64,000 bases of DNA from Candidatus Woesearchaeota archaeon. Lineage in GTDB: Archaea; Nanobdellota; Nanobdellia; Woesearchaeales; SKIA01. A model generated the notes under the pieces. The model was not told the DNA's origin. It searched no databases and worked only from the letters and a program-made list of their open reading frames with translations. This document shows, one piece after another, positions 3,632-56,617 of the stretch. The stretch's first letter is position 1; each line of letters starts with the position of its first letter. The position numbers and the translations under genes were made by a program. The DNA lies in NCBI GenBank assembly GCA_043771635.1, contig JAYVHA010000007.1, forward strand, positions 2,233 to 66,232. The letters are read 5' to 3'.

Positions 3632-5102
<1,471 letters not shown>

Positions 5103-32797: not shown

Positions 32798-33683
32798 ACT
32801 GGACGGCAACAGAGTGATCTTTCTGAACCAATACGAATATCTCAGCACACCGGAAAGGCTTTCGGTGAATAACCCGTTACACCAAAAAGTACTTGTTGAC
32901 GAAGGCATCATTGTCGGTCCTCCACCGCCTGCACCTGCTACAACAAAGTTGCCAGTGCTGTTCATTGAACCTCACTACGATGACATTGCACTATCCTGTG
33001 CGAATGCACTTCTTGTACATCGTGCTAACGGGCATCCCGTGCACGTCGCAACGTTGTTCCCTCGTACTGCGATAGCGACGTTTCCATGGCGAGCACAAGT
33101 TACATTGTCGGCTGAGGCGTATCATAAGCTGCGGCAGGCTGAAGGCTCTGGAGCTATGCATGCTTACCTAGGGGGTACGGTCCACTCATTTGACGAGCGG
33201 GGCGCAAGCCTGCGGGGATCAAAAGAACCATTCGGCCAATATGAAACCGGCGATCAAATTGTTGTTGAACGGCTGTTAGAAGGAGTTGAAGCACTTATAC
33301 AGGAGATAAAGTGCAATAATGTATTTGCGCCTATGGGATTTGGTATGCACCGCGATCACCGCGTGGCTCATGAAATCGGCCTTGCGTTAGCGAACCGCGG
33401 CCATCAAGTACAATTTTACGAAGATCAGCCCTATGCAAGCAACCGGTTCACATTTGCCACCACACTCGGATCGCAATGGCAAATGCACTACACAGACAGT
33501 GGCCCGAACCTTGATTCGATAGCAAATCTCATCACTATGTATCGCTCCCAATTTGACGATAGTACACGATCACAAACACTTGCAACTCTTAAGTGTCAAG
33601 CACGTACAGCGGCAGTTGAAGGTCGAGGCGCCCACGAATTCGGGGATGCAGAGTTTGCTGAACGGACACGGGTGCTTAGATGA
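32742..33683 (+). CDS. LmbE/PIG-L family N-acetylglucosaminyl deacetylase
   Basis: LFIEPHYDDIALSC (PIG-L HPDDE-type metal site) and MHRDHRVAHE. Confidence 0.65.
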   Translation: MCWRSFRCHMSFLQLPHFKLDGNRVIFLNQYEYLSTPERLSVNNPLHQKVLVDEGIIVGPPPPAPATTKLPVLFIEPHYDDIALSCANALLVHRANGHPVHVATLFPRTAIATFPWRAQVTLSAEAYHKLRQAEGSGAMHAYLGGTVHSFDERGASLRGSKEPFGQYETGDQIVVERLLEGVEALIQEIKCNNVFAPMGFGMHRDHRVAHEIGLALANRGHQVQFYEDQPYASNRFTFATTLGSQWQMHYTDSGPNLDSIANLITMYRSQFDDSTRSQTLATLKCQARTAAVEGRGAHEFGDAEFAERTRVLR

Positions 33684-35002
33684 GAATCGCGTTCATCGAT
33701 GACGAACCAGAGATATATCCGCATTCGTACGGTGGAAAAGCACGGACAATACGAACACTTGCAAACGCACTAGCAAATACGCCTTCAGTAGATAAGGTGC
33801 TTATCGCAAGTCGAAGTATCCGAGACTCACGGAAAATATTCTATGAAGAGGGCGTACAGTTTCAATTGCTCGAGGGCTACGGCATAGCAAGTGAGTTGCG
33901 AAGAATCACTCATGAATATGACATTGTAAACGTTCATACTTGCTCGTTTACATTCCCACAGGTGCTTGATACGCCAGCGCGTATTATCAACCACCTCCAT
34001 GATGTTATCTACGCAACATGCGACGCAGGAAGTCATCTTGACAAAGCCCTCGGCGGCCAATGGAGCGGAATTATAGCGCCATCCGAATTCGCAGCTCAAA
34101 CCGCACGGAATGTTGGCTGGTGGAACCTGAGCCTAGACGATATTGCTGTAATTCCTCGCATCATTGACGCCAATCGATTTTTTTTGATGGACCAGAGTGC
34201 TGCACGCCAAGCGCTCGCAGAAGTACTACCGAAGCACGCGCAAGTAATTCGGGACAGCTATCCGTTACTTGCATTTCCGAATCGACCAACCGCAGGAAAA
34301 GGCGGCGCCATACTCGCTGAATTACATGAATTACTCCGTGAAGAATTTGAATCGCCGCTTATTATCACAACCGGCGGCGACAGCGATTCGCATGCAATCA
34401 GTAGCGGCTGGTTGCAAACCAATCAGCTTCGCGCACTGTATGCAGCGGCAGATATATGCCTTGTCCCATCACTTCTTCCTGAGTCATTCTCTCAAGTTCC
34501 TCTGGAAGCAGTTATGTGCGGAACACCAACCATCTCTACGCGATTTGGTAATCTTGGACTGCTTGCAGACACTGTACCGGGAATATACGAAGCGAAACCT
34601 TCAGCAGCACACATTAGAGAGCGAGTGCATGAAGTGCTTGCTGAAGGGAAAGAAGCAGCAGCAGAAGGCCGCACCAGAATTATGACGCAGTATAGCGCAC
34701 GCAGCGTTATTGTAAAACTGCTTGCTGCGTATGATTCGATGCCCGCACATCCAAAACCCGCAGTAACACATAGTTCTCTGGACGCACGGTGGTTTACATC
34801 CCCTCTCCTTGCAGTCTACGGGACAGAGGCATTCCTGGGAACTGACGGTTTGCCTCAGGCAATTGCACTAACAGAGAACGATCGCTCCCTTCTGCAGTAT
34901 TGCGCACGCGCACGAACACAAATCGACTTGAGTCGTTCGGGCCTAGAATACACACAAAGCGTGCGACGGCTCAGTGAAGCAGGAGCACTCATCAAGGCAT
35001 AA
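33680..35002 (+). CDS. glycosyltransferase, GT-B fold (GT4-like)
   Basis: C-terminal ADICLVPSLLPESFSQVPLEAVMCGTPTIST (GT1/GT4 E-x7-E region). Confidence 0.65.
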   Translation: MRIAFIDDEPEIYPHSYGGKARTIRTLANALANTPSVDKVLIASRSIRDSRKIFYEEGVQFQLLEGYGIASELRRITHEYDIVNVHTCSFTFPQVLDTPARIINHLHDVIYATCDAGSHLDKALGGQWSGIIAPSEFAAQTARNVGWWNLSLDDIAVIPRIIDANRFFLMDQSAARQALAEVLPKHAQVIRDSYPLLAFPNRPTAGKGGAILAELHELLREEFESPLIITTGGDSDSHAISSGWLQTNQLRALYAAADICLVPSLLPESFSQVPLEAVMCGTPTISTRFGNLGLLADTVPGIYEAKPSAAHIRERVHEVLAEGKEAAAEGRTRIMTQYSARSVIVKLLAAYDSMPAHPKPAVTHSSLDARWFTSPLLAVYGTEAFLGTDGLPQAIALTENDRSLLQYCARARTQIDLSRSGLEYTQSVRRLSEAGALIKA

Positions 35003-35005
35003 AAC

Positions 35006-36136
35006 ATGGTACAAAAAACTCCCTTCGTCATTAATGACATATTGTTCTTAGAAGAATTCTGCAATCTCGCATGCGGTTACTGTGAAGGTTTCTACCCGAC
35101 TGAATTCAAGTTCAAACCCCGAGAAGGCAAACTCCGTATGCCAACTTCATGGAAAGCCATGGTTGAAGCGGATCAGTCACTGCAAACACGCCTAAGCAGC
35201 GAACCAACTGTTGACAGTTTATTCGATGTCGGAAGAGAAGTGCTTGAGCGCATGAATGAAAAAGCAACCTACCCTATTCTGAAACTTTCAGGAGGCGAAA
35301 TATTTCTCTATGATAAGCTCGTTTCATTTGTTGAATCTATTCATGATCAATACTCAGGCGTTCAGTTACTCACGAATGGCGTTCTCTTTGGTGCCGCCGA
35401 GGTTGACCGTTTAGCGTCACTCGGGAACGTTTACTTTCAAATATCTCTAGATGGCGTTACACCACAAACAAACTCCTCGCGCTCTAAAAGTGGCGCAACA
35501 CTTGATCGAATACTACGGAACATCGATCGCATTCAAGATGCCGGCATGGGACTCGAAATAAACTGTGTATTAACGAATACAAACACTGATTCTTTCCTAC
35601 ATCTTGCGGAATACATGGCGCACCGCGGCACGTCTATTGTAATGCCTCGCCCAGTACGCGGACCACCTGCAAAAACGCAAGCGGCAAGCGATGAACAAGT
35701 GCGCGCATTTGCAACGGTTCGTGAGCGATATAATGATATTGGACACGTGCTTCCACCTGAAGCGTATCTTGATCGAGTCATTAGCGTACTCGAACGTAAG
35801 CAACGAAGTTGGGATTGTTTCGTGCCCTTTTTCGTACTCGGAGAAAACTATTACGGAAAAATTAACACCTGTACTTGTAGTGGAGCTTTACCGGTTCTTG
35901 GAAACGCACTTGACAAGGATACAACCGCATTCCACACACTGAGCACTCGTGCACAATACGATGCAAAGAGTAAGCCCGAGCCATGCGCAGACTGCATAAC
36001 GCAATACGAAGTGTTCAATCTGTATGCAGAAGGAAAAGTGACTGATGCCGAGCTTACCAAACTCGCGACATTCCGTGTACCAAACGCACTTGCAACAGCA
36101 CAGAGAATTAAAGCAGAGCTGCATACTTCGCGATGA
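35006..36136 (+). CDS. radical SAM enzyme (possible SPASM/twitch auxiliary cluster)
   Basis: CNLACGYC (CxxxCxxC). Extra Cys near C-terminus (CTCSG..CADC). Confidence 0.7.
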   Translation: MVQKTPFVINDILFLEEFCNLACGYCEGFYPTEFKFKPREGKLRMPTSWKAMVEADQSLQTRLSSEPTVDSLFDVGREVLERMNEKATYPILKLSGGEIFLYDKLVSFVESIHDQYSGVQLLTNGVLFGAAEVDRLASLGNVYFQISLDGVTPQTNSSRSKSGATLDRILRNIDRIQDAGMGLEINCVLTNTNTDSFLHLAEYMAHRGTSIVMPRPVRGPPAKTQAASDEQVRAFATVRERYNDIGHVLPPEAYLDRVISVLERKQRSWDCFVPFFVLGENYYGKINTCTCSGALPVLGNALDKDTTAFHTLSTRAQYDAKSKPEPCADCITQYEVFNLYAEGKVTDAELTKLATFRVPNALATAQRIKAELHTSR

Positions 36137-37305
36137 AAACTCTTGTACATATTCCATGGAGTTTGCAGCCAGGGTTTATTGGCGGCACCGAACGCTTTGC
36201 AATCGATCTTACGAAGGGACTGCGCAAGCAAGGCAACGATGCGACAATTGTTTGTTCCAACCTTGAAGAGCAATTAATTATCGAAGGCGTACCGGTGTTC
36301 GGACGCATTCCAGCACAATATCGAGATAAAGTTAAAAACTATGGCGCAGCCGACGAACACTTCTTTCGGAACGAAGTGCTTCGCGGATCAGAGCCAGGTT
36401 TCTGTGAACGCATGTCGGCATATGTTGCACAGCAAATAGAAGGGTTTGATTTCGACATCATTCATTTTAACAATATGATCGGCGCGGCAAAATTACCACC
36501 AGCGCTTCTTCGTCGTTCGATTGTAAGCGTACATGACTGTCCTGAAGAGCTAACAAACTATTGGAAAATGCCGTACGAGACAATACGACGCGCTGTGGAC
36601 CAAAATGGCGAACTAGTGCAAGCCGGTGCGCTCGTCGCAAGTACTCAGCACTATGCTGCTCGATTTAGTGCCGACCTCAATTTCACGTTTGCTGTTATTC
36701 CACTTGGTGTGCAACCAAGCGCAGTTACTCAATCCCAACGGAACCCTTCTGAGCCACCCACCATTCTTTTGCCCGCGCGATTTGATGTAAACCAAAAGGG
36801 ACAAGACATTGCCGTGCGAGCGCTTAGTATGCTGAAAGCATGGAACGTACCCGCACGCATGATACTGAGCGGATACCAGCCTGAAACGTATGCTCGCGAT
36901 AAAAAGATGATTGATACACTTATTGCTGAGTGCGGCGCCGAGGAAGAAATAACCATAACCCGATTCGAGCGACGAAGTGATGCATATGCAGCCGCTGACA
37001 TTGTTGTTTCCCCGGAACGTTTTTGTACGTTTGGACTTTCTATAGCTGAATCATTAGCAGAAGGGATACCAACTGTACTTGCACCAATTCCAACGTATCA
37101 GGAAATAACGAAGGGTGCCCCTCATGCATCCTTCGCTGTCGATCACACTCCACTTGCGTTTGCGAATGCACTACGTACCGTGATTCGGAGCGGATACTTA
37201 CGCGATCCTGTAGCTGCAAAACAGTTCCAAGCCGATCACTCGTTTGCAACAACAGTAAACCGCTATAGCGATTTGTATGCCGCAGTTCTGCGGCGAGCAC
37301 AATGA
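36133..37305 (+). CDS. glycosyltransferase family 4
   Basis: N-terminal GGTERFAIDLTKGLRKQGNDATIV. C-terminal GLSIAESLAEGIPTVLAP. Confidence 0.65.
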   Translation: MKTLVHIPWSLQPGFIGGTERFAIDLTKGLRKQGNDATIVCSNLEEQLIIEGVPVFGRIPAQYRDKVKNYGAADEHFFRNEVLRGSEPGFCERMSAYVAQQIEGFDFDIIHFNNMIGAAKLPPALLRRSIVSVHDCPEELTNYWKMPYETIRRAVDQNGELVQAGALVASTQHYAARFSADLNFTFAVIPLGVQPSAVTQSQRNPSEPPTILLPARFDVNQKGQDIAVRALSMLKAWNVPARMILSGYQPETYARDKKMIDTLIAECGAEEEITITRFERRSDAYAAADIVVSPERFCTFGLSIAESLAEGIPTVLAPIPTYQEITKGAPHASFAVDHTPLAFANALRTVIRSGYLRDPVAAKQFQADHSFATTVNRYSDLYAAVLRRAQ

Positions 37306-37943
37306 TTCGTGCAGTACTATTCGACATGGACGGAGTACTCATCAACTCGGAAGAATTATGGCATAGCATCGAACCTGAAATCCTTCGTACTATAGTACCT
37401 GAGTGGAACGAAGCCTTGCAAAAACACATTACGGGCATGAGTTCGCGAGGCGTGTACGCTTATCTCTGTGCTGAGCACGGCGTTACGGAATCGTTTTCCG
37501 TGTTTGAAGGACGCTACCGCGCTGCAGCAAAACGCATTTACGGGAAGGAAGGAGCGCTATACCCTGGTGTGCGTGAAGCACTGGTTATGGCGAGTAAAGA
37601 CGGTCGAAAAATCGCGATTTGCTCATCTTCACCCACAGCCTGGATACAGATGATGGTGGAACACCTCAACATTAAGGATTGTTTCGATGCAGTAGTAAGC
37701 GCAGACCGCATTGGCGGAAAAGGCAAACCTGCACCTGATGTATATTTGCTTACCTGTCAGACACTTGCTGTGAAACCAGCCGAATGTATTGCAATTGAAG
37801 ACTCAAGAAACGGAATCGCATCAGCGAAGGCTGCTGGGATATTCACGTATGGATATCTAAATGGCTTCAACACGCTAGAAGATTTGGCTAACGCGGACGC
37901 CATAATCACAGACTTCGCGCAGATCGAATGGAACAAGCAATAG
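37302..37943 (+). CDS. HAD-superfamily hydrolase (subfamily IA, beta-phosphoglucomutase-like)
   Basis: AVLFDMDGVLINSE motif I. IAICSSSP. IEDSRNGIASAKAAG. Confidence 0.7.
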   Translation: MIRAVLFDMDGVLINSEELWHSIEPEILRTIVPEWNEALQKHITGMSSRGVYAYLCAEHGVTESFSVFEGRYRAAAKRIYGKEGALYPGVREALVMASKDGRKIAICSSSPTAWIQMMVEHLNIKDCFDAVVSADRIGGKGKPAPDVYLLTCQTLAVKPAECIAIEDSRNGIASAKAAGIFTYGYLNGFNTLEDLANADAIITDFAQIEWNKQ

Positions 37944-38727
37944 CGTTGCGCAGCGCAGGTGCATGTTCAGAAAGCAACGCGAGTTTCGTGCGAGCTGAAG
38001 CAGTAATCGATTTCGACGACGCATCACGTTTCTTTCCGAACTCTGCAATTAAATCCCTATTGCGTTTCTTCATTAAGGGCAGCACCTTAGCAGCTTCTAC
38101 TCTATTCAGTGGAAACACGCCGTCATAAGCGCCGAGAAACACTGTTAAACCTTTCAGGTCCAGGCCGTTAGTGCGGGTGATGAATAGCTGTGTGCTGGCA
38201 ATTGCTAGGTCTTGAACTACTGTAGCGCTATGAGCGTCACCAAAGTCAATGAATACTATGCCTCCCTGAGTTCGAATACTATTTTCCCGAGTGATGTCTG
38301 CGTGAATGGTGGCCCGTCGAAGCGAGTTTGGAGCGTTTGAACTTCCCCCAATCGCGCTAAGCGCACGGTGCAGCATCCCAAGAGACTTGCCCACAGCCTT
38401 TGCTACCGGAGTCGAGATTCGCAAGCCAAGCGGTTCACCCTGTACGTATGAAAGAAGCAAAGCCGAACAGTTCTGGTCCACAGTAAAGAGTTTTCCGGCC
38501 TTCGTAGGTATTACTGCAGGCACCGGCGCTGAATGCCCAGTTAGCGCTGCCAGAAGCACCCCTTGTGCTCGCAGCGTTTTGCTCGTTTTTGCAAACCGGA
38601 GTACGTAATCGCGCTTACCGGCAGTGACCTTGAATACAGCGTCCGGACCTCGATTAAGGCGTTTAATCGCGCTTGCGGAAATTCCATACTGCCGCAATAC
38701 TAATTGCACGATTCGGACAGTTGCCAT
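37906..38727 (-). CDS. aminoglycoside/choline-kinase-like phosphotransferase (APH family)
   Basis: IHADITRENSI and FIDFGDA (Brenner and DFG-like motifs of the PF01636 family). Confidence 0.6.
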   Translation of the reverse strand: MATVRIVQLVLRQYGISASAIKRLNRGPDAVFKVTAGKRDYVLRFAKTSKTLRAQGVLLAALTGHSAPVPAVIPTKAGKLFTVDQNCSALLLSYVQGEPLGLRISTPVAKAVGKSLGMLHRALSAIGGSSNAPNSLRRATIHADITRENSIRTQGGIVFIDFGDAHSATVVQDLAIASTQLFITRTNGLDLKGLTVFLGAYDGVFPLNRVEAAKVLPLMKKRNRDLIAEFGKKRDASSKSITASARTKLALLSEHAPALRNAIACSIRSARSL

Positions 38728-38833
38728 GACAACTTGCTTCTAGCAGTGAATTAAAATGTGCCTATCCTGCAAAACGGGAAAAAACGCACTAGTGTCACGA
38801 GAAAGTAGTCAGGAGAGTCTCTGTGAATCTGAC

Positions 38834-39116
38834 CTGACGGGTTAACTGCTCCAGCCGACCCCACGACCTGGCAGGTCTCAAGTCTCCGGGAAAAGGCCAA
38901 TGGCCACTAGCTTTTGTTGCTCTTGGGGTGAGAGCAAGTCCCAGCTGTGGATTAGAATAGCTTTGAACTTCGAAACACTCAGAGTTATGGTAGGTTCGTT
39001 CATACCACCTCTAAAGGTAAGATGATATTTAGCGGGAACTCCGAGTCCGTATAACACGCGACGAAAAACGGCCTAAAAACCGTATAACATATTCGAGATT
39101 TATAAAGGATCAATTC
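38834..39116 (+). repeat. dispersed intergenic repeat, copy B
   Basis: 5' ctgacgggttaactgctccagccgaccccacgacctggcaggtctcaagtctc. 3' gtaagatgatatttagcgggaactccgagtccgtataacac...gatttataaagg. Minus strand retains a 41-codon remnant MNEPTITLSVSKFKAILIHSWDLLSPQEQQKLV.. with SD agaggtgg. Confidence 0.7.
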
Positions 39117-39156
39117 GAGTTTGCATTTGCGGCTCTACTCAGCGTCAAAGTGCTGT

Positions 39157-39726
39157 TTATAATACGCTTCTTCGCTTTAATTCAAAAAAGCATTTTGCAC
39201 ACATTGCTACATCAACTTTTGCATCGTGAGCACCAGAAAATTCACTATCAAACAATTTTTTGTGTAGTTCTTTGAGCGCCGGCCATTTAAATCCTCGATC
39301 GGTTTTTATCGCACAGTATTCAGTGGTTGTTAACATCGTGCATGTTCTAATTGAGTCCCCGAACGGAAATAATAATTCACAACGTATAAACTCTGCGTGA
39401 ATTACTGGTTCATCAAAACTCAAATTATGGGCAATAATGTTCTTAGACTTCTTTACATCTTCTGAAAACATAATAAGTGCTTCTTTTAACAAAATACCTT
39501 CTTGCAGGGCTCTTTCAGTAGTAACGCCATGAATGCGAGAAGCCTCCAAAGGTATAGTATAACCCTCTGGATAAATTATGAAATCCTCTTGTTTGACTAA
39601 GGAGCCCTCACCATCATATAGTTGCCAAGCAAGCTGAACAACCCGAGGCCAGTTTTGCAAATCAGATGGAAGACCTTTGTAGTTTTTTGGTAAACCGGTA
39701 GTTTCAGTGTCGAAAATGAGAAACAT
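39157..39726 (-). CDS. DEDDh 3'-5' exonuclease (DnaQ/RNase T-like)
   Basis: Exo I FDTETTGLP, Exo II HNLSFDEPVI, Exo III HDAKVDVAMCAKCF. Confidence 0.8.
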   Translation of the reverse strand: MFLIFDTETTGLPKNYKGLPSDLQNWPRVVQLAWQLYDGEGSLVKQEDFIIYPEGYTIPLEASRIHGVTTERALQEGILLKEALIMFSEDVKKSKNIIAHNLSFDEPVIHAEFIRCELLFPFGDSIRTCTMLTTTEYCAIKTDRGFKWPALKELHKKLFDSEFSGAHDAKVDVAMCAKCFFELKRRSVL

Positions 39727-39851
39727 TTATTCGGGACTCATTTTTGATTTATATTACTTAACTGAACCCGGCAAGTTAATTACGATCGCACGGAGAACGG
39801 CTCCCGACGCATAATGAGTAAGTATTTAACTCTCAAAACGACAGGCAGAGC

Positions 39852-41603
39852 ATGAAACTAGTAGGGTTAAAACTAGCCTACATTAAGTCTTTTAAAACTC
39901 TGGATTGGAATATAGCCCGAACTAAGGTAATAATTGGTCAAAATGATCATGGCAAGTCCTCAATTCTTAAGATACTAAATTTTGTTCTGAACGAGATTAC
40001 CGACTATCATCTGGATCAAGGATTTTTGGAGCCTGCACTAGCAGAAAAACTAATTCCTGCATTTAGTACGAGCGCTCGCGCCAGGCGCATAACATTAATT
40101 GTGCAAGAAAAAAGCAAATATAAAGAACTGTATATTGATATTGGACGCAATTACTCCATAAAAGTTCATGATAAAATAACGCGGGGCGCTAAAACTACTC
40201 CTGCAGGCAAGAAGCTATTCACAAAGATACGTAGTAAAAATAGGTTTGAACTGGTACCAGCGATAAGAGACGTATCGTCAGAGATATATAAGCAGCTTTT
40301 TTCTACAACGCTACAGCAACACGGACTTTCAAAACTAAAACCCAAAGCCGCGGGTGGAACACAGAGAGAATACAGAGAACTACTAGCTATTAGAAATAGC
40401 ATCGATGAAATTATCCAGCCGTATGTACATAAACGATTGCTGCCCAAGTTAAGTGACGAATTTGGTTTCACGCCACAGCACGAACTTCTTCTAACATTCA
40501 ATAAGGATACAGAGGCAATTGCCGAATGGATTCAAAGCAACCTACAACTTGGTTTCAAATTAGGCAAGGAAGCAGAAGAATATATTTCAATTGATGAAGC
40601 GGGAACAGGAATACAAAGTGCCTTGCTCCTTGCGCTCATAAGATTAAAAAATAGAAGTGAAGCTGACAAGAATGTTCATTTTTTTCTTGCCATCGAAGAA
40701 CCGGAGACATTTCTACATCCACAAAAACAAAAAGAGCTTTACTCTAGCATCAAGGGATTGGAGTCTGATAACCTAACCATAATTATCACGACGCACAGCC
40801 CATACATTGTTTCTGAATCTAAATTTTCTAGCTTAGGGATAGTTCGCAAAGACGACAAGTTCTCAAACCTCCACACTGTGAAGAGCGTGCCACCAAAAGA
40901 TATGGACATATTTGACAGCTATAGTGGTGAAGTAAATTCACAATTGTTTTTTGCGGATAAAGTCATACTCGTAGAAGGAGAAAGCGATAAAAGAGTTATA
41001 GAAACAATTTTACACCGCAAATTTGGAGCCAAGTCATTTAGGTATACAGTAATTTCGGCGGCAGGCAACAGAAATTTTTCGCCATATCTAAAAATGATCA
41101 ACTGTTGGAAAGAATTGAAGATTCCTCATCTAGTTGTTACTGATTTTGATTCATTAACGGCGGGTAGCGATAGAGCCATGAATACTGGCGCAAAGGCCGC
41201 AGGATATTTGCTAAATGCTGAGCAACTGTTAAATCAAAACGTAGACGACGCGATTCAAAAAGATGAAGGCGAGTATAGAAAAATAGCCATTCAAGCAGCC
41301 AATTTCTATGCTCGTTCAGGATTAGAAGTATTCATTTGGACTTGTGACTTGGAGTATGCACTAATTTCGGATAGCAAAATAGACCCAATAGTTCGGGAAT
41401 TAAGTGCAGCGAACAATTCAAGCTATTCAGGCTACACTTGCGCTCAACTGCGTACATTAATCGGAAGCAAAGGCATCCCTCTAAACAGCGGATCAGATGC
41501 ATTAAAGAAACCGTACATACATCAAAAATTGTCGTGGCATTTAGACCTGGATGACACTGAAAGTGATGTATATCGTCTGATTCAAGCAATAAATAAGTTA
41601 TGA
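39852..41603 (+). CDS. OLD-family nuclease: N-terminal ABC-type ATPase + C-terminal Toprim
   Basis: Walker A GQNDHGKSSILK. Walker B/H-loop FLAIEEPETFLHP. Toprim ILVEGESDKRVIE and HLVVTDFDSL. Confidence 0.75.
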   Translation: MKLVGLKLAYIKSFKTLDWNIARTKVIIGQNDHGKSSILKILNFVLNEITDYHLDQGFLEPALAEKLIPAFSTSARARRITLIVQEKSKYKELYIDIGRNYSIKVHDKITRGAKTTPAGKKLFTKIRSKNRFELVPAIRDVSSEIYKQLFSTTLQQHGLSKLKPKAAGGTQREYRELLAIRNSIDEIIQPYVHKRLLPKLSDEFGFTPQHELLLTFNKDTEAIAEWIQSNLQLGFKLGKEAEEYISIDEAGTGIQSALLLALIRLKNRSEADKNVHFFLAIEEPETFLHPQKQKELYSSIKGLESDNLTIIITTHSPYIVSESKFSSLGIVRKDDKFSNLHTVKSVPPKDMDIFDSYSGEVNSQLFFADKVILVEGESDKRVIETILHRKFGAKSFRYTVISAAGNRNFSPYLKMINCWKELKIPHLVVTDFDSLTAGSDRAMNTGAKAAGYLLNAEQLLNQNVDDAIQKDEGEYRKIAIQAANFYARSGLEVFIWTCDLEYALISDSKIDPIVRELSAANNSSYSGYTCAQLRTLIGSKGIPLNSGSDALKKPYIHQKLSWHLDLDDTESDVYRLIQAINKL

Positions 41604-42045
41604 TACTAAAAACCGGCAATGACCTGATTATGCATGGCAAATAAGTACCCGAATTTCAGCTTTTGGGTTCGCTAGAAAAAACAAATCAAAGCTAAATTTG
41701 ACGGAAGTTACGGCGCCCGGCATGGGAGGCAACTCGCGCGCGGGAGCCTCGTATATGGCACAGAATCAGAACAGAGTATTTTCGGGAATGATAAATGGCT
41801 ACGGTTTCGAGCGCTTGCGCAGAAGATTCTAGTACTAAGAAAAGAATCGAAATCTCGTTAATAGCACGTTATCGCATCGTAAACATAATGATAGACGTAC
41901 ACATAACTTCAATTATACGCACACTATGCTGTGTAAGAAATAATGTAGTAACTACTTTGTAGAATCATACTAGCTTATATTTGAATCAATGATTTGCATG
42001 TAATTCTCCCAAAAAGGTTATAACTAAGCGAATCACGGAAATAAT

Positions 42046-45000
42046 TTGGGTGGGCAGATAATCTGCCAAAGAGTGATAGAAGCAACAAGAAAAAACGTAC
42101 TACTCTTTATTGCATTAGTTGCACTTTTTTCTTGCGTATTTTCAGTGCGGGCTGCGGAATATAGTACTGCTACAGCTTTTCCGACAATTCCAGGCTTAGG
42201 ATTGAATACAGGTGTTGTTGCGGCTGCAGATCAGAACACTGGTGCTTTCGCATATAGTTACCAGTTTACAGTCCCTGAAGGTCCTGGCGGTTTAAAACCT
42301 GAGGTAGTACTGTCATATAATTCTCAGGCTGCTCGTGAACAGCGAGGAAACCAAGCAGCTGGCTGGGTTCTTAATAACGAGTATATTGACCGATTCCAAA
42401 ACTATACTCCATACATACTAACGGATGACGAATTCTACTTAGTATCTGGAAACGGGCGTGAGAAACTCATGTACAATGGATCTGGGACTAATAGATGGCA
42501 TACTCAGCACGAGACATTTACTTACATACAGAACTTAACATCAACTTCCAACAACTTTGGGATGTACTGGTCGATAAAGTATCCTGATGGTACAACAAAA
42601 CGTTATGGAGAATCTAGTAGTGAAGAATATGAAACCACTTACGGTGTAATGGCGAAACGCTATCATCTCGACCAGACAAATGACACATATGGCAATAAAC
42701 TACAGTTCCACTATCAACCAGCTGGAGTATTCACCTTAGACTACATAACTTATGGCGGTTCTACCCCAAGAACAGTTCAATTCGTGTATGAACCAAGACA
42801 ATATCCTAGGACCACTTACTATAATGGCTTTGAAGAACAATACACAGCTAGGCTTGCTGGAGTACAAACTACATACGGCGGAACACAAGTAAGATACTAC
42901 GATTTGAACTACTCAGTATCTGATTATTTGGAGCTATTACAATCAATAACTGAGTTATCAGCAACGAATAGCACATCATTACCAGCTACCACATTTAGCT
43001 ACTACTCAGCAACCGGGTGGATCAATCTAACCAGTCCATGGAGTCTTAACCCGCTATACTTCTTTGAATTCGAAGATGGTAAGGATTCAGGCGCCAGGGT
43101 AATTGACATAACTGGAGATGGCTTAGCTGACTACATACGACAAGTAATGTGCAATTCAAGCGCCTATAATAATACGCCTAACGTAAGTACAGCATATATG
43201 CGACAATTCCCTGGCGCAAGCAAAATAACTGTAACGGCGCAAGCATATGGAAATAGTTCTAACATGCAAAACTATGCCGTATCAGCAGGATTTCCACTAA
43301 CTGCAGCTCACAACCTTACGCAATCAGGCATTCTCAGCATCACTAATCAAGAGTATGGTCTTTACATAACTCCGAATAGAAACATATCGCTTCACCGCGT
43401 CAATGGTGATGGAATAGGTGCACCTTTCGAAATTGAGGTATTCAATGTATCATCAAGGATAGAAATCGCATCAGCTATAGGATCGAATGGCTATGCACAA
43501 TTTGACTCAGGCGTAAATTTATTCGCGCACCAGCGATATAGAGTGAGCTTTAAAGGAGCATCGCAAACGTATAGATATGGATCAGGTACAGGAGAGACTG
43601 TCAATTCAACATATCTTGCTATTGAGTGCGGCTACAGATATAATGATCCAAATGAAGGGTACTGCTATTCAATAGCATCATTCTCTATAGAGGAGCTATT
43701 TGAAAACAGCACCACTACAGGTTCCACTACCCTGAATCTAAACAACGGCGTGTACAATGGCAGGATACTTGCGGAAAACCACACGACAAAAACCTTTACG
43801 CTCACAGTTAACGGAACAGGTACGCAGCATGTATCAGATGTAGTTACCTCAAACGACTACTGTGCACCTGTACTGATAAACAACGGAAGCGGATACAACC
43901 TAGACGATGGCACTTGGAGAGTACCTACAAACTACTCGTTCGTGGACAATGGCACTGATTTAGGCACAAGATTTGCAGACATAAATGGAGATGGCCGCGT
44001 TGATCTCGTGCGAAGCGACTGCACCGCCGGAAAAACATTCAACGGAGTGATGCTAAACAATGGAGCTGGCTGGACTGCAACAAACTGGACTGTTCCAGCG
44101 GGTTACTGCATCATAGATGCCGGTTACAACGCAGGAACAGAACTTCTTGACGTAAACGCAGACGGAAGAGCAGATCTAGTAAACGGACGCGATCAAGCGC
44201 CGCTTATACTAAAAACAGCACTAAACACAGGATCTGGCTGGTCTAACTCAACTCAATTTACTCCACCAGTAGCCACAATGACCTACCTTGGAGGAGACGA
44301 CAGTGTGCGATACGTTGATATGAATGGAGATAATCTCGTGGATGTTCTTCAGCAATGCGGAGCTACAGCTTGCAGATCCTCTTACTTGAATAATGGTTCT
44401 GGCTGGAAATCAACGCAGGTATGGTGGACGCCTACCACGTACGCGTTTACTAACGGAATAACTGACGAGGGACTGCGACTAGTGGATCTTAACGGAGACG
44501 GGCTAACCGACATATTGAGGAGAAAGAATTGCACCTCCATTAACTGCTATGGAGTGCTGTTCAACAATGGAAGTGGCTGGATACAAGATACTTCAACATT
44601 ATGGATACCAAACAATACAATGGCGTTTACCATCGGTGAAAAAAACAAAATAATTCGACTAACAGACATAGATGGAGACGGAGCAGTAGATCTTGTTAAA
44701 CGAGATTTGTGTACAACCGCGGACTGTAATACTACACTGCGAAGCTTAGGAGCTAATAACAACCTGCTGCAATCAATAAAGTACAGCACCGGCGGAAACG
44801 TGACCGTTACGTACAACTACTCTGCTCGCAAAAAGAACCTCGGAACAGACAATATCGCAGACATGCCCTACTCTCTACCCGTGGTCGAAACGATAACGCA
44901 GGCAAATGGTATTAGCGGGGCGTCCCAAAGACAAGAAACGACAGGTTACAACTATTCGGGTGCCGTTTACGCAAGAAACGCTTGGACAAGTGAGTTCCGA

Positions 45001-47106
45001 GGATTCGCCACCACAAACCAAACTATAGGTAGAAAAAGAATCTCGACAAACTGGTTCCAATCAACAGGTCTCGAAGGCCGAATTAAGTATCGCGAAACAC
45101 ACGACGGCAGCACAAGGCTCAGAAACGAATCAAGCGACACATTTGTGCACAACTCATCCTATATTTACAAAGCGGTAACGCTGGGCGTTACAACAGCCCA
45201 ATACGATGGAAACTCAACACCTTGGACGACAATAACGAACTTTACGTACGACCAGTACGGAAACGCCCTCACGGAATACTCGCAAGGCGACACAGCAATA
45301 ACTGGTGATGAGCGTCTAAAGAATAAAACTTACACTGCGAACACCGCATTATGGATCATTAATACAGTCAATAAAGAGCAGCTACTGGCTGCAAATAACG
45401 TAACAATTCTGCGGCAAACTAACTACAGCCGAAACACACAAGGATCAGTCAGCGGAGAAGAAAAATTCCTATCTGGAGGAACGAACACGTACAAGAACTA
45501 CACGTACGATGCGTACGGCAACATAAACAGAACAGCAGACGAAAGAGGATACGTAACAGCACAAACGTACGACTCATCCGGAACATTCCCCCTGACAACG
45601 CTTAATGCCCTCGGACAGTACACATACAGAACCTGGAACTCATCGCTTGGCACCTTAATTAGCGAAAACGACAGTAACAACTACTCGACAAACCACATGT
45701 ACGACGCATTCGCAAGAAAACTAACAACAACAAAACCGTACGACACAACAGCATCACCAACAGTATCGCACAGCTATTCATTTGACGGAGTAAGCCCCGA
45801 ATCAATTACAACTACGACAAAGATAAACGCAACAACAAACGCAGTAACAATCCAGTACCTGGACGGCCTAGGAAAAGTAGTACAAACCAAACAACTAGCA
45901 GAAGATGCACTGTACGCAGTACAAGACTTCACGTACGACACTCAAGCACGACTAAACCAAACAACAAACCCATACTACTCAAACAACAGCAGCTACGCAC
46001 ACCCCATACTAACCAACGGTTACTCGGGAATAACATACGACGCACAAGACAGACCAACACAACTAAGGTACGCAGATAGTAGGACAAAAAACACAACCTA
46101 CGCCAAGAACGTCACAACCAGTTATGATGAAAACGCGGAAAGAACAGACACGGTAAAAGATGCATACGCAAATACTATACGGATACTAGAGTACTTGAAC
46201 GGAACTGCATACGCGACTTCGTACACGTATGACGCAGTAAGCCAGCTACTAACAATTGAAGATGCACAAGGCAACGACATAACGTTCAGCTACGACACGT
46301 TTGGCCGAAAGACCTCACTTGTCGATCCTGACCTCGGAACTTGGAACTACACCTACGATGCTGCAGGTAACTTAGTTTCTCAACGTGACGGCCGCGGCGT
46401 GACAGTATCCCTCTCGTACGACGCACTGAACAGGGTAACTCGCAAAAACGGAACATCAAGCGCAATGGACTTCACATACGATACCATCGCAAAAGGAACA
46501 TTGGCAAAAGTGGCTCTGACAAGCGCGAACAAGACATTCGCGTACGACCAACGTTTACGACGCACGCAAGAGAACTTGAGCATAGACGGAATAACATTCA
46601 GCACGAATTATAGCTACGACAGTGCAGACCACCTCATCCAGAAGAATATGACGAATGGGACTAGCATTAGATATACGTATAACGCTTTTAACAAACCTGA
46701 GAGTATTACAGGGATAATTAATGACTTTGATTATGTTGCTGTAGGCCAGCCAAGCGGCCGCGCGTATAACAATACACTCACAACAAACCTGACTTACGAC
46801 ACGAATAGCTTGCGTCTTAGCCGCATATATACGGGCACGAAGCAAAACATGAGTTATAGTTACGATGCTGTTGGAAACATATTGTTAATTACAGATGTCG
46901 CAAATAACGCGTCAGAAACATACACGTACGACGACTTAAACAGAATTAGCACGGCGAACAGAATAGTAAACGGAACAACACAATTTAGTGCAGCATACAC
47001 AGTAAGCCCAATTAACGTAATTACGAAGATAGTCACAAATAGTTGGACTAAGACTTTCAGCTTCGGATCTGCGCCAGTGCATGCTCCAAGCGAGGCAGCA
47101 GAGTGA
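42046..47106 (+). CDS. TcB-like RHS/YD-repeat protein: SpvB-N domain, FG-GAP-like beta-propeller, long YD-repeat shell (no RHS core)
   Basis: Signal-like NVLLFIALVALFSCVFSVRA. SpvB-like PGLGLNTG..YSYQFTVPEGPGGLKPEVVLSYNS..AGWVL. Repeats DINGDGRVDLV, VDLNGDGLTDIL, TDIDGDGAVDLV with NNGSGW. Dozens of YD repeats (YTYDAAGNLVSQRDGRG, YDALNRVTRK). Start codon uncertain (TTG/GTG). Confidence 0.85.
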   Translation: MGGQIICQRVIEATRKNVLLFIALVALFSCVFSVRAAEYSTATAFPTIPGLGLNTGVVAAADQNTGAFAYSYQFTVPEGPGGLKPEVVLSYNSQAAREQRGNQAAGWVLNNEYIDRFQNYTPYILTDDEFYLVSGNGREKLMYNGSGTNRWHTQHETFTYIQNLTSTSNNFGMYWSIKYPDGTTKRYGESSSEEYETTYGVMAKRYHLDQTNDTYGNKLQFHYQPAGVFTLDYITYGGSTPRTVQFVYEPRQYPRTTYYNGFEEQYTARLAGVQTTYGGTQVRYYDLNYSVSDYLELLQSITELSATNSTSLPATTFSYYSATGWINLTSPWSLNPLYFFEFEDGKDSGARVIDITGDGLADYIRQVMCNSSAYNNTPNVSTAYMRQFPGASKITVTAQAYGNSSNMQNYAVSAGFPLTAAHNLTQSGILSITNQEYGLYITPNRNISLHRVNGDGIGAPFEIEVFNVSSRIEIASAIGSNGYAQFDSGVNLFAHQRYRVSFKGASQTYRYGSGTGETVNSTYLAIECGYRYNDPNEGYCYSIASFSIEELFENSTTTGSTTLNLNNGVYNGRILAENHTTKTFTLTVNGTGTQHVSDVVTSNDYCAPVLINNGSGYNLDDGTWRVPTNYSFVDNGTDLGTRFADINGDGRVDLVRSDCTAGKTFNGVMLNNGAGWTATNWTVPAGYCIIDAGYNAGTELLDVNADGRADLVNGRDQAPLILKTALNTGSGWSNSTQFTPPVATMTYLGGDDSVRYVDMNGDNLVDVLQQCGATACRSSYLNNGSGWKSTQVWWTPTTYAFTNGITDEGLRLVDLNGDGLTDILRRKNCTSINCYGVLFNNGSGWIQDTSTLWIPNNTMAFTIGEKNKIIRLTDIDGDGAVDLVKRDLCTTADCNTTLRSLGANNNLLQSIKYSTGGNVTVTYNYSARKKNLGTDNIADMPYSLPVVETITQANGISGASQRQETTGYNYSGAVYARNAWTSEFRGFATTNQTIGRKRISTNWFQSTGLEGRIKYRETHDGSTRLRNESSDTFVHNSSYIYKAVTLGVTTAQYDGNSTPWTTITNFTYDQYGNALTEYSQGDTAITGDERLKNKTYTANTALWIINTVNKEQLLAANNVTILRQTNYSRNTQGSVSGEEKFLSGGTNTYKNYTYDAYGNINRTADERGYVTAQTYDSSGTFPLTTLNALGQYTYRTWNSSLGTLISENDSNNYSTNHMYDAFARKLTTTKPYDTTASPTVSHSYSFDGVSPESITTTTKINATTNAVTIQYLDGLGKVVQTKQLAEDALYAVQDFTYDTQARLNQTTNPYYSNNSSYAHPILTNGYSGITYDAQDRPTQLRYADSRTKNTTYAKNVTTSYDENAERTDTVKDAYANTIRILEYLNGTAYATSYTYDAVSQLLTIEDAQGNDITFSYDTFGRKTSLVDPDLGTWNYTYDAAGNLVSQRDGRGVTVSLSYDALNRVTRKNGTSSAMDFTYDTIAKGTLAKVALTSANKTFAYDQRLRRTQENLSIDGITFSTNYSYDSADHLIQKNMTNGTSIRYTYNAFNKPESITGIINDFDYVAVGQPSGRAYNNTLTTNLTYDTNSLRLSRIYTGTKQNMSYSYDAVGNILLITDVANNASETYTYDDLNRISTANRIVNGTTQFSAAYTVSPINVITKIVTNSWTKTFSFGSAPVHAPSEAAE

Positions 47107-50100
47107 ATCGAATGTTCCTTGCTGTCATGTTCGTTGCATTAGCATTAGCAATTCCTTCGGCATTAGCTGATAACATCACTAATGAAACGAACAACTCAAT
47201 TCCAATACTATTACCGAACGGCACGATCAACACAACAGCCCCAGTAATTATACTCGTGCCAACAGAGAATGTAGTAGAACAGCCTGCTGTAACAATATCA
47301 GAACCAAACCCTAAGCCTGCCGATGAGCCACAAGTAATTGAGGCTCTAGAACTTGTTGTAGCTCCTACTGAACCTCGTGACGCGCCCACACGCGACCCAG
47401 CAACAGTAGACGCACCCATACCTTATTGCGGACATAAGTCATGCGCAAAGGAGATTCTGACTACTGTGCGTGTTTCTGAAACAGCGTTTGGACGGCAGGA
47501 GATACTACAGCTAGAAAAAGATCCAAATTACCCGTGTACCATCGAAGAAGGCGGATTTGTAGTATGCGAGCCAATAACTCCTCAAGGAGAAGCAGCATTA
47601 AGGGCTGCATACGACCTCTCCGAAGGAATTCCCACTACAGACTACCGCCAGCCAGTTTACGAAGGATATTCAAGCCAACTGAGTACAGGCATCGTACGCG
47701 GAGTGAGAATTGGTTCTTACAAACGATCCACGATCAACCCTACCGTCCGGCAAAGATTCGAAATTAACGCTTCCGAACCTGGCGTATTCGTCGTAGGATT
47801 CGCCTCAAACGTCTTTGTCGTGTCAGACTTTAATTACGGTACGTGCGAGAACTGCTCAATTGGCACAACACAAGTAACACTTGAAAACTACCACTCGACA
47901 GACGCAGCACAAGCGCTTTCATGGCGTTTCTCAGGAAACGGACTAGACAGCTCAGGAAACGCAAACACAGCAACATTCGGCGGAGCAGCATACGTAAACA
48001 ACACATTTGCTGATGGTTTCGCGTTTAATGATGCCAATAAACTATCAGCTCCAGATGCCGCTAGCCTTGATATTTCAAACATGACGTTGTCTTTCTGGGT
48101 TCGGTTTAAATCCCTAACAGAAAACCAAACACTGATTTACCGCTACACATCAACAAACGGGTACTTATGCGAATTCGCTAAATACGACACAACAGGAATT
48201 CAATGCTACACAAGAAACTCAACAGCAGGAGGTGCTGCATGGGTACAGACAGGAGGAGCTAGCGAGACACAAAACCCTGACTATGAAATAAACAAATGGT
48301 ACCACATAGTACTAACCTATAACCTAAGCTCAGGAAACCTAAGCATATACCAAGACGGAACACTAAAGCACTCAAAAATTGCAACAAACCACAGCATGTC
48401 GTCAACAGCTTCATTCAAATGGGGAGCGGACTACTTCGACGCGTTCAACGGAACTGTAGACGAAATAAACCTCTACAGCAGAACATTCTCAGCAACAGAA
48501 GTAACATCCCTGTACAACTCGGGCTTATACCTAGTAAACCCATCATACGGAAACTACACAAGCATGATTGACCTCGGCCAATCATCGACTGTTTCAAGTG
48601 TGTCTTGGACTGGAAGTGGAAACCTAACAATAGCAGCAAGAACCGGAGACTATGCAAAACCAGGATTAACAGATACTGGACTATTCGGGTACTGGCCACT
48701 AAACCAATCACTGCTTTGTAAGGATGCGAACAGCCGTTATAACGGAACAGCATCATCAGGAGTAATCTGTGGAAACGTATCAGGACCATTCGTGCTAGAA
48801 AACGCAACATGGTTTGACAGCGACACCGACAAAATAACTCTACCACTCGCGACAAACTTCACCAACTGGTCTGTGCAAGTATGGGTGCGAAGCGATGGCA
48901 CATGTGTCGACGGACAAAACATATTCGCAAAAGGATGGGACTACCGAATATACACAACAAGCTCTTGCGGCATAACCATAGTATCAGCGAACAGCAGTGG
49001 CTCAAACAAATCAATGTCGTCCGTATGCTCAATATCCGACGGCCGATGGCACTCACTAGCATACGTATACAACGACACAGCAAAGACCGCGTACGCGTAC
49101 TGCGACGGAGTACAAAAGTCTAGCGTGACTCAGCAAGGCACAGCAACCTCATCAACTAACTTCACAATCGGCGGAGGAACTTCCGGCTTGACCTTCAGAG
49201 GATCCGTAGCGCAAGTATCATTATGGAATAAGACACTAGCACCAGCAGACCTAGTAGCATGGAACACGTGGAGCAGCACGCTCACATCAGGAAACGACCC
49301 AGGACTAACAGACGGCAGGTATGTACAATATTCAGCAATACTGCGCACGAACGATACTCGCAATACTTCGATGCTGACTAGCGTAAGCGTAGGCACAAGC
49401 AGTTCTTGCTCACTTTCAAACGGAGGTTACAACGTAACCCTAATGAACGGCGCATCAACAGGAAGCGGATACGCAACACTAGATGGAACTGATGATAGAA
49501 TAGATACTGACCTAAATGTTAGTTCTGTACTTAATAACGGAAGCTTCACACTTGCCATGTGGGTGAAAAGTGATGTCGACAGTGGGCAGCGAGCATTCTG
49601 GAGCGCGGACAGTAGCGGAACAGATAGATTCTATTTACGACAGAGCGATATAAGCTCAAACCAAGTAGTGCTCGGCGCCAGTAGCTGGAATCCGGTGTTG
49701 ACAGGTTATGGTGCTTTGAGTAACTGGACACATTACGTCCTGATTATTAACGGAACTAGTGGCCTATTCTACCGTAACGGGTTGAACGTTGCTAACACAA
49801 CAGGAATAACAAAGAACTATCCAGGAAAATACTTACGATTCGGCGCTAACGGCGATACACTAGCAGAAACACACGACGGAAACATAGACGGGATAAACCT
49901 ATACAACCGAGCACTAACATTAACAGAAGTTAGCCAGCTGTACACAAACATAACTGTAACAACCGGTCAAATACTTAGCATAGAATTCAATACCTGCAGC
50001 GCAACAACGAGTTTAACATACGACCCTAACGGAAACATGGTTTACGACGGTACGTATACCTACGAGTATGATTCATTCAATAGGTTGACCAAAATCTGGC

Positions 50101-51218: not shown

Positions 51219-51541
51219 CAAAGGAAAAAACACTGACTAAGAATTTGAACGCAGACATCCTTGTTAATTTGTCCAATGTGGCAAGTAAAAAAAAAGTGTT
51301 CGAGATATTTAGTTCAGAACTATTTTTTCCAGAGTATTTCGGACACAACTGGGATGCGCTATATGACTGCTTAACAGACCTTGTTTGGCTTCCAAAAGTT
51401 AAAACAACTATTACAGTCTGTCTTCCAAAAAGGCTTTCTAACAATGATAAACTCGTTTTAGTAAGATTGCTTCAGGATGTAGACGCCTACTGGGAGCAGG
51501 AAAAGAGACATATTAGGGTCAAAATTGGTAATAACAATTAG
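51215..51541 (+). CDS. barstar-family immunity protein
   Basis: ELFFPEYFGHNWDALYDCLTDLVWLP versus barstar [26 protein letters not shown]. ATGA overlap with the toxin stop. Confidence 0.8.
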   Translation: MTKEKTLTKNLNADILVNLSNVASKKKVFEIFSSELFFPEYFGHNWDALYDCLTDLVWLPKVKTTITVCLPKRLSNNDKLVLVRLLQDVDAYWEQEKRHIRVKIGNNN

Positions 51542-56507: not shown

Positions 56508-56617
56508 CCCGTATACATATACTGTATTTCATAATTTATCTACTTTCGCGTGATAATTTCAATGTATTTCCGGCGTTTCCGGATTACCGACGGCGCCACC
56601 CCTAAATCCAGGCCTAA

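Follow-up and report, generated by a model that had tools for sequence, protein, structure and literature searches.

An OLD-family nuclease gene beside a divergent DEDDh exonuclease gene in a low-GC patch of an archaeal chromosome

Class 1 OLD nucleases are encoded by single genes in variable neighbourhoods of bacterial and archaeal genomes, and defence by a single gene of this kind has been proven (PMC10568477, PMC12392090, PMC12796447). The class comprises, among others, P2 Old, TsOLD from Thermus scotoductus (PDB 6P74), Vibrio cholerae OLD (Vc OLD) and Escherichia coli YbjD. We know of no archaeal Class 1 OLD that has been characterised or experimentally shown to be antiviral. In Gabija, the Class 2 system, gajB lies immediately downstream of gajA. 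Cran1-type genes (Class 5) are restricted to Sulfolobales, vertically inherited and paired with a membrane-protein gene (PMC12796447).

Here we analyse an OLD gene on a contig of a Candidatus Woesearchaeota archaeon, within a stretch of 64,000 nucleotides that we refer to as the window. The host of the contig is archaeal, as seen from a 16S-tRNAAla-23S operon at window positions 1-5102 (16S at 3635-5102). According to the ORF list, the OLD gene and an exonuclease gene are transcribed divergently from a common spacer. An APH kinase gene lies on the exonuclease side of the locus and an RHS gene downstream of OLD, beyond a gap of 442 bp (41604-42045, GC 0.391). The features of the locus are as follows:

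39157-42045, no strand: low-GC block (about 0.38-0.39) that comprises the two genes and the 442-bp gap up to the RHS gene
39157-39726, - strand: stand-alone DEDDh (DnaQ/epsilon-like) 3'-5' exonuclease gene, 189 aa, exonuclease domain only
39727-39851, no strand: divergent intergenic spacer, 125 bp, sequence read directly
39748-39755, - strand: TATA-like TTTATATT, reading AATATAAA on the - strand, some 25 nt ahead of the start codon (ATG) of the exonuclease gene
39823-39829, + strand: TATA-like TATTTAA, some 26 nt ahead of the start codon (ATG) of OLD
39852-41603, + strand: OLD-family nuclease gene, 583 aa, with N-terminal ABC-type ATPase containing a dimerisation insert and C-terminal Toprim domain
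39936-39962, + strand: Walker A/P-loop GQNDHGKSS, aa 29-37; G29-S37 invariant in a 20-sequence alignment
40683-40724, + strand: FLAIEEPETFLHPQ (aa 278-291), the Walker B and D-loop region, which includes the catalytic glutamate
40947-41150, + strand: Toprim nuclease core, aa 366-433, Pfam OLD-like_TOPRIM 1.4e-14

The pair is found with identical flanks on seven independently assembled metagenome contigs and is therefore not an assembly chimera. The proteins are 100% identical across the seven contigs, which thus represent one population and a single observation of the pairing; adjacency of OLD and DEDDh genes is known only from this archaeal population. With the adjoining APH kinase gene as query for sister genomes, no relative above 29% identity was recovered, and the archaeal lineage carrying the pair is thus poorly sampled.

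Class assignment of the OLD nuclease

All ATPase motifs of the OLD protein, namely GQNDHGKSS (Walker A), EAGTGIQS (signature-like), IEEPETFLHP (Walker B/D-loop) and THSP (H-loop), fall on invariant columns. Within the Walker B/D-loop segment, which aligns with IEEPEMYLHPQ of TsOLD, residues A280, E282-E285 and F287-Q291 are invariant in the 20-sequence family alignment. The same alignment shows E375, G376, S378, D431 and D433 to be invariant in the metal-binding Toprim motifs EGESD (aa 375-379) and DFD (aa 431-433). The ORF is full length relative to the family and retains every catalytic and invariant residue. The original prediction had described a 583-aa ABC-ATPase with a Toprim domain on the basis of GQNDHGKSS, IEEPETFLHP, VEGESDK and VTDFD, and all four motifs are indeed present in the translation on invariant columns. 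Its assignment of an Old/GajA-type architecture is borne out by Pfam (AAA_15 1.8e-25, AAA_21 3.3e-17, OLD-like_TOPRIM as listed), PADLOC (GajA 7.5e-41, Old 3.1e-35) and the PDB profile search.

The signals for the class of the protein are mixed. The best PDB match of the family profile is the Class 1 TsOLD structure (6P74, 8.8e-18; GajA about 5e-9), PADLOC places its GajA model slightly above Old, and the fold search is non-discriminating. In the latter, an AlphaFold model (pLDDT 74.5) was compared by Foldseek and retrieved Eco8 OLD, GajA and TsOLD at E values of 1e-18 to 3e-17 with TM about 0.5, the match to GajA equalling that to TsOLD. The protein is best placed with the stand-alone OLDs of Class 1, because its bacterial orthologues occur without any UvrD partner. 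In line with a stand-alone gene, neither a DEDDh nor a UvrD-like gene is present in any of 34 OLD-centred loci (24 genome loci with 10-kb flanks and 10 annotated loci with 7-kb flanks, a small share of the 912 detected homologues); the neighbours are variable, and type I restriction-modification (R-M) genes are frequent among them.

Like P2 Old, TsOLD, Vc OLD and YbjD, the OLD gene described here stands alone in a variable or mobile neighbourhood and lacks a conserved partner. It differs from these proteins in its archaeal host, and its bacterial orthologues, rather than being isolated, mostly lie within type I R-M operons. The resemblance to TsOLD is remote and local, with a profile match over about 200 residues.

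With GajA the protein has the ATPase-Toprim architecture in common, and the PADLOC GajA models give its strongest HMM scores. The window also holds a UvrD-family helicase gene (19663-21450, - strand) whose product scores 1.1e-51 on the PADLOC GajB model, and the two genes could be taken for a split Gabija system of Class 2. We consider this extremely unlikely, as the helicase matches housekeeping PcrA/UvrD models equally well (1.7e-51), has an ordinary GC3 (0.419), adjoins a prolyl-tRNA synthetase gene and is situated about 18 kb upstream of OLD, more than 15 genes away. The gene directly downstream of OLD encodes an RHS toxin and not a UvrD-like helicase, UvrD-like genes are absent from all 34 orthologue loci, and the OLD profile is nearer to Class 1 TsOLD than to the GajA structures. 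The earlier statement that OLD has no UvrD partner is thus correct for its immediate neighbours, but the window does contain this one UvrD-like gene.

Assignments to Classes 3, 4 and 5 were rejected. For Class 3 (retron Eco8 type), the neighbours do not fit (APH kinase, DEDDh and RHS genes), the NCBIfam Eco8 effector model scores 63.8 bits (cut-off 250), and there is no Rfam match at E<=1 in 38600-42100, a stretch that thus shows no sign of a retron RNA or a tRNA attachment site. In Class 4 (PARIS AriA/AriB) the domains reside on two proteins, whereas both are found here on one 583-aa polypeptide. The protein is set apart from Cran1 (Class 5) by description, given its foreign composition, its bacterial relatives and the lack of a membrane-protein operon.

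Cran1, the sole archaeal OLD to have been characterised, is an essential protein and does not act against viruses (PMC12796447). By the same token, the present OLD might have a cellular, non-defence role like that of Cran1 in the Sulfolobales cell cycle and chromatin, and the exonuclease might be a repair enzyme. Such a role is very unlikely: Cran1-type genes are vertically inherited and confined to Sulfolobales, unlike the compositional outlier described here, the nearest OLD relatives are bacterial (49% identity) and lie in restriction-modification operons, and our searches detected no OLD orthologue in any other archaeon.

The exonuclease and the search for a conserved partner

The coordinates confirm a divergent gene across a 125-bp spacer, and RNase_T and DEDDh matches (Pfam RNase_T, 1.8e-8, aa 3-180 of 189; PADLOC DEDDh, 5e-23) confirm that it encodes a DnaQ-like 3'-5' exonuclease, as had been claimed. 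The motifs D6-x-E8, H100-N-x-x-x-D105 and H167-x4-D172 are kept, with D6, E8, D105, H167 and D172 (Exo I/II/III) invariant in 22 aligned exonuclease sequences, and the ORF is full length relative to the family. The PDB profile matches are the PolC exonuclease domain, DnaQ, TREX1 and epsilon; NCBIfam returns weak Pol III epsilon and PolC matches, and all epsilon scores are far under the cut-offs. An identification as Pol III epsilon (DnaQ proper) was rejected, since RNase_T fills nearly the whole chain without a polymerase-binding C-terminal tail and the host is archaeal. To our knowledge, archaea have no Pol III.

Relatives of the exonuclease form the N-terminal domains of DnaE proteins of about 1,400 aa (PHP, Pol3 alpha, fingers, HhH, OB), and the fusion of the exonuclease to DnaE1 in Bacteroidetes has been described (PMC3919608). 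The archaeal protein shares 43-48% identity, the DEDDh fold and the three Exo motifs with the Bacteroidetes-type DnaE1 proofreading domain; in contrast to DnaE1 and DnaQ, it is a separate 189-aa protein with neither an attached polymerase nor a tail for binding one. The relatives closest to it (52-56% identity) likewise stand alone, and their neighbours are variable. The exonuclease is from a bacterial proofreading family that is often fused N-terminally to DnaE1 and is also common as a stand-alone protein in bacteria, phages and giant viruses.

The original prediction held that OLD and DEDDh form a distinct two-gene defence module, and conserved co-occurrence was the proposed check. In the 24 genome loci, no DEDDh gene was found within 10 kb of OLD relatives with the subfamily HMM at E<=10 and filters off, nor was one found in the 7-kb flanks of the 10 further annotated loci, where RNase_T is absent from the Pfam-annotated neighbourhoods. 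Conversely, no OLD gene is present in the 8-10 kb flanks of 163 DEDDh-centred loci (10-kb flanks for 80 metagenome and 80 IMG/VR loci, 8-kb flanks for the 3 nearest homologues), a small share of the 1,543 detected homologues. A divergent DEDDh gene overlooked beside bacterial OLDs was considered and dismissed, as the unfiltered rerun at E<=10 gave nothing credible. The OLD subfamily was not found on viruses in IMG/VR.

A lineage-specific module, in which the exonuclease would for example widen OLD nicks to gaps and take a GajB-like accessory place, is unlikely and already largely refuted by this neighbourhood analysis (linkage in 0/34 and 0/163 loci). The adjacency of the two genes across a short divergent spacer, their GC3 values below those of all other genes in the window, suggestive of joint acquisition, their intact active sites and their constant company on all seven contigs that bear them speak for it. 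However, the seven contigs count as a single observation, the divergent orientation means that the genes are not an operon, and OLD orthologues function in settings that lack any exonuclease. Nor does the exonuclease appear to be a dedicated partner, as its widespread DnaQ-like family is one of replicative proofreading, has variable contexts and occurs without OLD, frequently fused to DnaE1. Missing linkage and an exonuclease family that occurs without OLD are the two observations which the original prediction had named as speaking against it. The exonuclease gene is therefore a neighbour of OLD and not a conserved partner.

Origin and likely function of the two genes

GC falls to 0.388-0.40 at the locus, and the exonuclease and OLD genes have the two lowest GC3 values (0.305 and 0.342) among the 38 genes of the window, the remainder ranging from 0.39 to 0.57. 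The nearest relatives of both proteins are bacterial (49% identity for OLD, 55% for the exonuclease). Since both genes are compositional outliers with bacterial closest relatives, the low-GC block is probably horizontally acquired DNA, and OLD is best filed as a bacterial-type nuclease gained horizontally by an archaeon. A search for insertion boundaries around the pair revealed only short, imperfect repeats of a chance-level kind. The suggested defence-island context is broadly right in that the setting is mobile and variable and that the toxin locus exists as a pair of RHS/YD-repeat genes, the second of which ends in a barnase-like RNase and is followed by a barstar gene; the supposed adjoining transfer module, however, is a VirB4/TraC-like ATPase gene 15 kb from the pair.

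We think it likely that the locus consists of two functionally independent, horizontally acquired genes lying side by side in a variable low-GC chromosomal patch, with OLD stand-alone and the exonuclease an orphan. OLD and DEDDh genes are neighbours in none of the other loci surveyed, and the locus therefore appears to hold an ordinary single-gene OLD with a chance neighbour. By analogy to P2 Old, V. cholerae OLD and E. coli YbjD, the OLD protein most likely works alone as an anti-virus or anti-plasmid nuclease. Its ABC ATPase, dimerised via the inserted helical domain, would sense or license, and the Toprim domain would nick or degrade invading or replicating DNA by two-metal catalysis; the outcome may be abortive infection. 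We infer both the defence function and the nicking mechanism. In the archaeon, the orphan exonuclease probably trims DNA ends or takes part in repair, or else it is cargo left over from a mobile element.

The two A/T-rich elements in the spacer suggest two separate, putative leaderless archaeal promoters, judged by letters and spacing. Small ORFs (25-59 aa) in the two spacers flanking the pair are without supporting evidence.

Given their adjacency and their GC3 values, the two lowest of all, the genes may stem from a shared fragment of an unsampled donor that already had them linked; their low GC3 is one point in favour of joint arrival. A defence cassette travelling from such a low-GC donor, in which the exonuclease would process OLD nicks or remove 3' ends and thereby block viral replication, is nevertheless quite unlikely. 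If it existed, this exonuclease-partnered cassette would represent a new OLD class.

It is likewise improbable that the pair is inert cargo or a decaying mobile-element remnant without current function. The foreign composition and the nearby RHS toxins and VirB4-like ATPase element would fit such a remnant, but neither ORF is shortened relative to its family, all catalytic and invariant residues are in place, the pair is identical across the seven contigs, and the TATA-like elements are suitably spaced from both start codons for putative promoters.

On the preferred reading of two independent genes, the locus matters little as it stands: it is a further case of a stand-alone OLD gained by horizontal transfer, here in an archaeal genome. 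Nevertheless, this bacterial-type OLD, whose catalytic residues are intact, could be of use in asking whether Class 1 OLDs defend archaea from viruses.

Bacterial OLD orthologues and type I restriction-modification

The bacterial orthologues are about 48% identical to the archaeal OLD, and HsdM, HsdS or HsdR neighbours occur in 12 of 22 genome loci of OLD relatives. The typical order is hsdM-hsdS-OLD-...-hsdR, with hsdS and OLD overlapping by 4 nt. The OLD subfamily is thus closely associated with type I R-M operons in bacteria, and its translation is often coupled to that of hsdS. This arrangement points to a functional link of OLD with type I R-M. Type I loci habitually carry extra defence genes, V. 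cholerae VPI-2 being an example (PMC11411939), and the position of the bacterial OLD orthologues between hsdS and hsdR resembles that of such embedded genes. Beside the archaeal OLD copy there are no hsdM, hsdS or hsdR genes. Other bacterial OLD loci adjoin a HaeII/Dcm type II system. The window encodes a single methyltransferase, a type II-like N6/N4 enzyme whose gene lies 21 kb from OLD.

The divergent OLD and DEDDh genes

The two genes are divergent at the positions originally predicted and are separated by exactly 125 bp, as had been claimed:

39157-39726 (-): DEDDh gene, 189-aa exonuclease
39852-41603 (+): OLD gene, 583-aa ATPase-Toprim protein

All peptide motifs quoted in the original prediction are found in the translations, and profile searches uphold the calls of an OLD-type ATPase-Toprim protein and a DnaQ-like exonuclease. 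The OLD protein matches AAA_15 (1.8e-25), AAA_21 (3.3e-17) and OLD-like_TOPRIM (1.4e-14) in Pfam and the PADLOC models GajA (7.5e-41) and Old (3.1e-35), and the DEDDh protein matches Pfam RNase_T (1.8e-8) and the PADLOC DEDDh model (5e-23). Both active sites are intact: Walker A, Walker B, the H-loop and the Toprim motifs E-G-x-S-D and DxD are invariant in an alignment of OLD with 19 homologues, as are the three Exo motifs in an alignment of DEDDh with 21 homologues.

The pair occurs with identical flanks on seven separately assembled metagenome contigs, and the adjacency of the two genes is therefore real; since the copies are 100% identical, they represent a single population. A/T-rich TATA-like elements 25-26 nt upstream of both start codons suggest, as far as sequence can tell, that the genes are on separate leaderless transcripts.

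Conservation of the pairing and origin of the two genes

We fetched the loci around relatives of both proteins and scanned them in six frames with HMMs derived from the two alignments. Both have numerous relatives; the nearest share only 49% identity with OLD and 55% with DEDDh, and those that carry a name come from bacteria. None of 24 OLD loci from species-representative genomes (flanks of up to 10 kb) contains a DEDDh gene, even when rescanned with HMMER filters off at E≤10, and an RNase_T gene is absent from 10 further Pfam-annotated loci (7-kb flanks) of three more OLD homologues. Conversely, no OLD gene is present in 163 DEDDh-centred loci (80 metagenome and 80 IMG/VR loci with 10-kb flanks, and the three nearest homologues with 8-kb flanks). 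The OLD HMM picks up 30%-identical relatives at 1e-27 and also finds GajA, PtuA and Eco8 OLD in the PDB, and is thus sensitive enough for this comparison. The OLD subfamily was not found in IMG/VR.

The exonuclease belongs to a widespread family of DnaQ-like proofreading enzymes, which occur without OLD. Of its 80 metagenomic relatives, 58 lie within ORFs of at least 280 aa or ORFs truncated by the contig end, about 38 of them in ORFs of ~1,300-1,560 aa. Pfam identifies all four of the long ORFs that were checked as DnaE, and three carry the full set of PHP, Pol III alpha catalytic, fingers, HhH and OB domains. The arrangement is that of Bacteroidetes DnaE1, which carries an N-terminally attached proofreading exonuclease (Timinskas et al., PMC3919608). 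A Hint/intein domain splits one of the exonuclease-DnaE fusions (locus L045, 9983-12202). The other relatives, the closest among them, are free-standing genes of ~190 aa with no conserved neighbour, and are also frequent on phage and giant-virus contigs; on giant-virus MAG contigs in IMG/VR (L137, L139, L141 and other GVMAG loci) they are common, with 33-41% identity.

The original prediction regarded the two genes as a two-gene defence module. With the pairing found in none of 34 OLD-centred and 163 DEDDh-centred loci, and the exonuclease being of a DnaQ-like type found without OLD (the two outcomes set beforehand as speaking against the module), this proposal is not supported. A lineage-specific OLD-exonuclease cassette derived from an unsampled donor is very improbable. 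The only point favouring some link is composition: the GC3 values of the pair, 0.305 and 0.342, are the two lowest among 38 genes (others 0.39-0.57), and both genes and the spacer after them form a contiguous low-GC block. This block fits arrival as a single fragment or successive insertions at one hot spot. Searches around the pair turned up neither flanking repeats nor a tRNA attachment site, and because the relatives of the adjacent APH-family kinase gene do not exceed 29% identity, there is no sister genome for comparison. OLD orthologues occur inside R-M islands and are missing from viral contigs, whereas DEDDh relatives form part of replisomes in bacteria and are frequent in viruses; this difference in typical vehicles argues mildly for separate origins.

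Context, class and proposed function of the OLD protein

HsdM, HsdS or HsdR genes flank OLD orthologues in 12 of 22 genome loci, usually in the order hsdM-hsdS-OLD-(0-4 genes)-hsdR and often with a 4-nt overlap between the hsdS stop and the OLD start. Our limited literature search found no published description of this coupling.

Type I R-M operons with OLD between hsdS and hsdR, an arrangement seen in many bacteria (locus numbering)
L005 7142-19301
L009 6309-16662
L190 4196-14501
L198 3610-12213

A Fic or Schlafen/AlbA_2 gene is sometimes also inserted in such operons. In another lineage, the OLD gene adjoins a HaeII/Dcm type II system, a PLD nuclease and a recombinase. A Leptospira alstonii contig (L018) carries two OLD paralogues of the same subfamily ~8.6 kb apart (10-1791 and 10408-11790).

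OLD classes are based mainly on gene context, and Class 1 comprises single genes with variable neighbourhoods in bacteria and archaea (PMC10568477, PMC12392090, PMC12796447), a description that the window gene fits. In Class 2 (Gabija), a UvrD-like gajB gene lies directly downstream, whereas here an RHS-repeat toxin gene follows after 442 bp, and a UvrD-like helicase is present in none of the 34 OLD orthologue loci. Class 3 (retron Eco8 type) has a reverse transcriptase gene and a retron RNA alongside, whereas the neighbours here are an APH kinase gene, DEDDh and an RHS gene, and 38600-42100 gave no Rfam match at E≤1. ATPase and Toprim are on two proteins in Class 4 (PARIS) but fused here, and Class 5 (Cran1) passes vertically within Sulfolobales, accompanied by a gene for a membrane protein, in contrast to the compositionally foreign gene studied here.

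One helicase gene in the window raises the alternative of a split Gabija system:

19663-21450 (-): UvrD/PcrA-family SF1 helicase, 595 aa, RQC-like N-terminus

Although its product matches GajB models at 1e-51, it scores equally well on PcrA/UvrD models, has ordinary GC composition, adjoins a prolyl-tRNA synthetase gene and lies 18 kb from OLD, outside Gabija adjacency; we therefore reject this pairing. The best PDB match of the OLD family profile is Class 1 Thermus scotoductus OLD (6P74, 8.8e-18; GajA, ~5e-9). The AlphaFold model (pLDDT 74.5, with the dimerisation insert modelled poorly) resembles Eco8 OLD, GajA and TsOLD to a similar degree, so that the fold confirms the family, not the class. 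We conclude that the 583-aa protein is best placed as a Class 1-type OLD that the archaeon probably gained by horizontal transfer.

The best explanation as a whole, which we consider quite probable, is a stand-alone Class 1-type OLD nuclease beside an independent DnaQ-like exonuclease. The OLD protein probably dimerises via the helical insert of its ABC ATPase, and its Toprim domain would cut or nick DNA by two-metal catalysis. Judging from the analogous proteins P2 Old, Vc OLD and YbjD and from the R-M context of orthologues, its most likely role is protection against viruses or plasmids, possibly through abortive infection. The DEDDh protein, predicted to act as a 3'-5' exonuclease without a polymerase-binding tail, cannot be a Pol III subunit since the host is archaeal; it may serve in repair or end trimming or be mobile-element cargo.

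Host and surrounding genes

The window is a piece of archaeal chromosome, with archaeal 23S rRNA, tRNA-Ala and 16S rRNA at its start, and encodes TFIIB. The 23S rRNA gene at 1-3093 (-) is interrupted by an intron:

797-1121 (-): group I catalytic intron (Rfam RF00028, 55.3 bits, E 2.6e-11)

A 1,776-aa multidomain protein (9920-15250, +) combines glucose/sorbosone dehydrogenase, cytochrome d1-type beta-propeller, malectin, cupredoxin/sulfocyanin-like and PEGA domains. The region 31748-38727 holds a co-directional cluster encoding a Fe-ADH_2/DHQS-like enzyme, a PIG-L deacetylase, a GT4 glycosyltransferase, a radical SAM enzyme, a second GT4 and a HAD phosphatase, together with the convergent APH-family kinase gene; its genes resemble sets for sugar, aminocyclitol or thiol-glycoside biosynthesis.

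Genes downstream of OLD
42046-51218 (+): two very large RHS/YD-repeat proteins, 1,686 and 1,371 aa
~51215-51541 (+): barstar-family gene, after the second RHS gene (called at 21364-21690 in L001, a separately numbered locus)
55478-56269 (-): TFIIB paralogue
56618-59617 (-): VirB4/TraC/HerA-like ATPase, 999 aa
59617-61638 (-): 673-aa protein adjoining the VirB4-like ATPase, no Pfam or PADLOC match
63096-63809 (-): type II-like N6/N4 DNA methyltransferase

The first RHS protein carries FG-GAP repeats, and in the second, Laminin_G_3 domains are joined by a barnase-like ribonuclease at the C-terminus; this second protein and the barstar gene are arranged like a polymorphic toxin and its immunity gene. 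The region 55478-63809 has the appearance of a segment from an integrated element, conjugative or plasmid-like.
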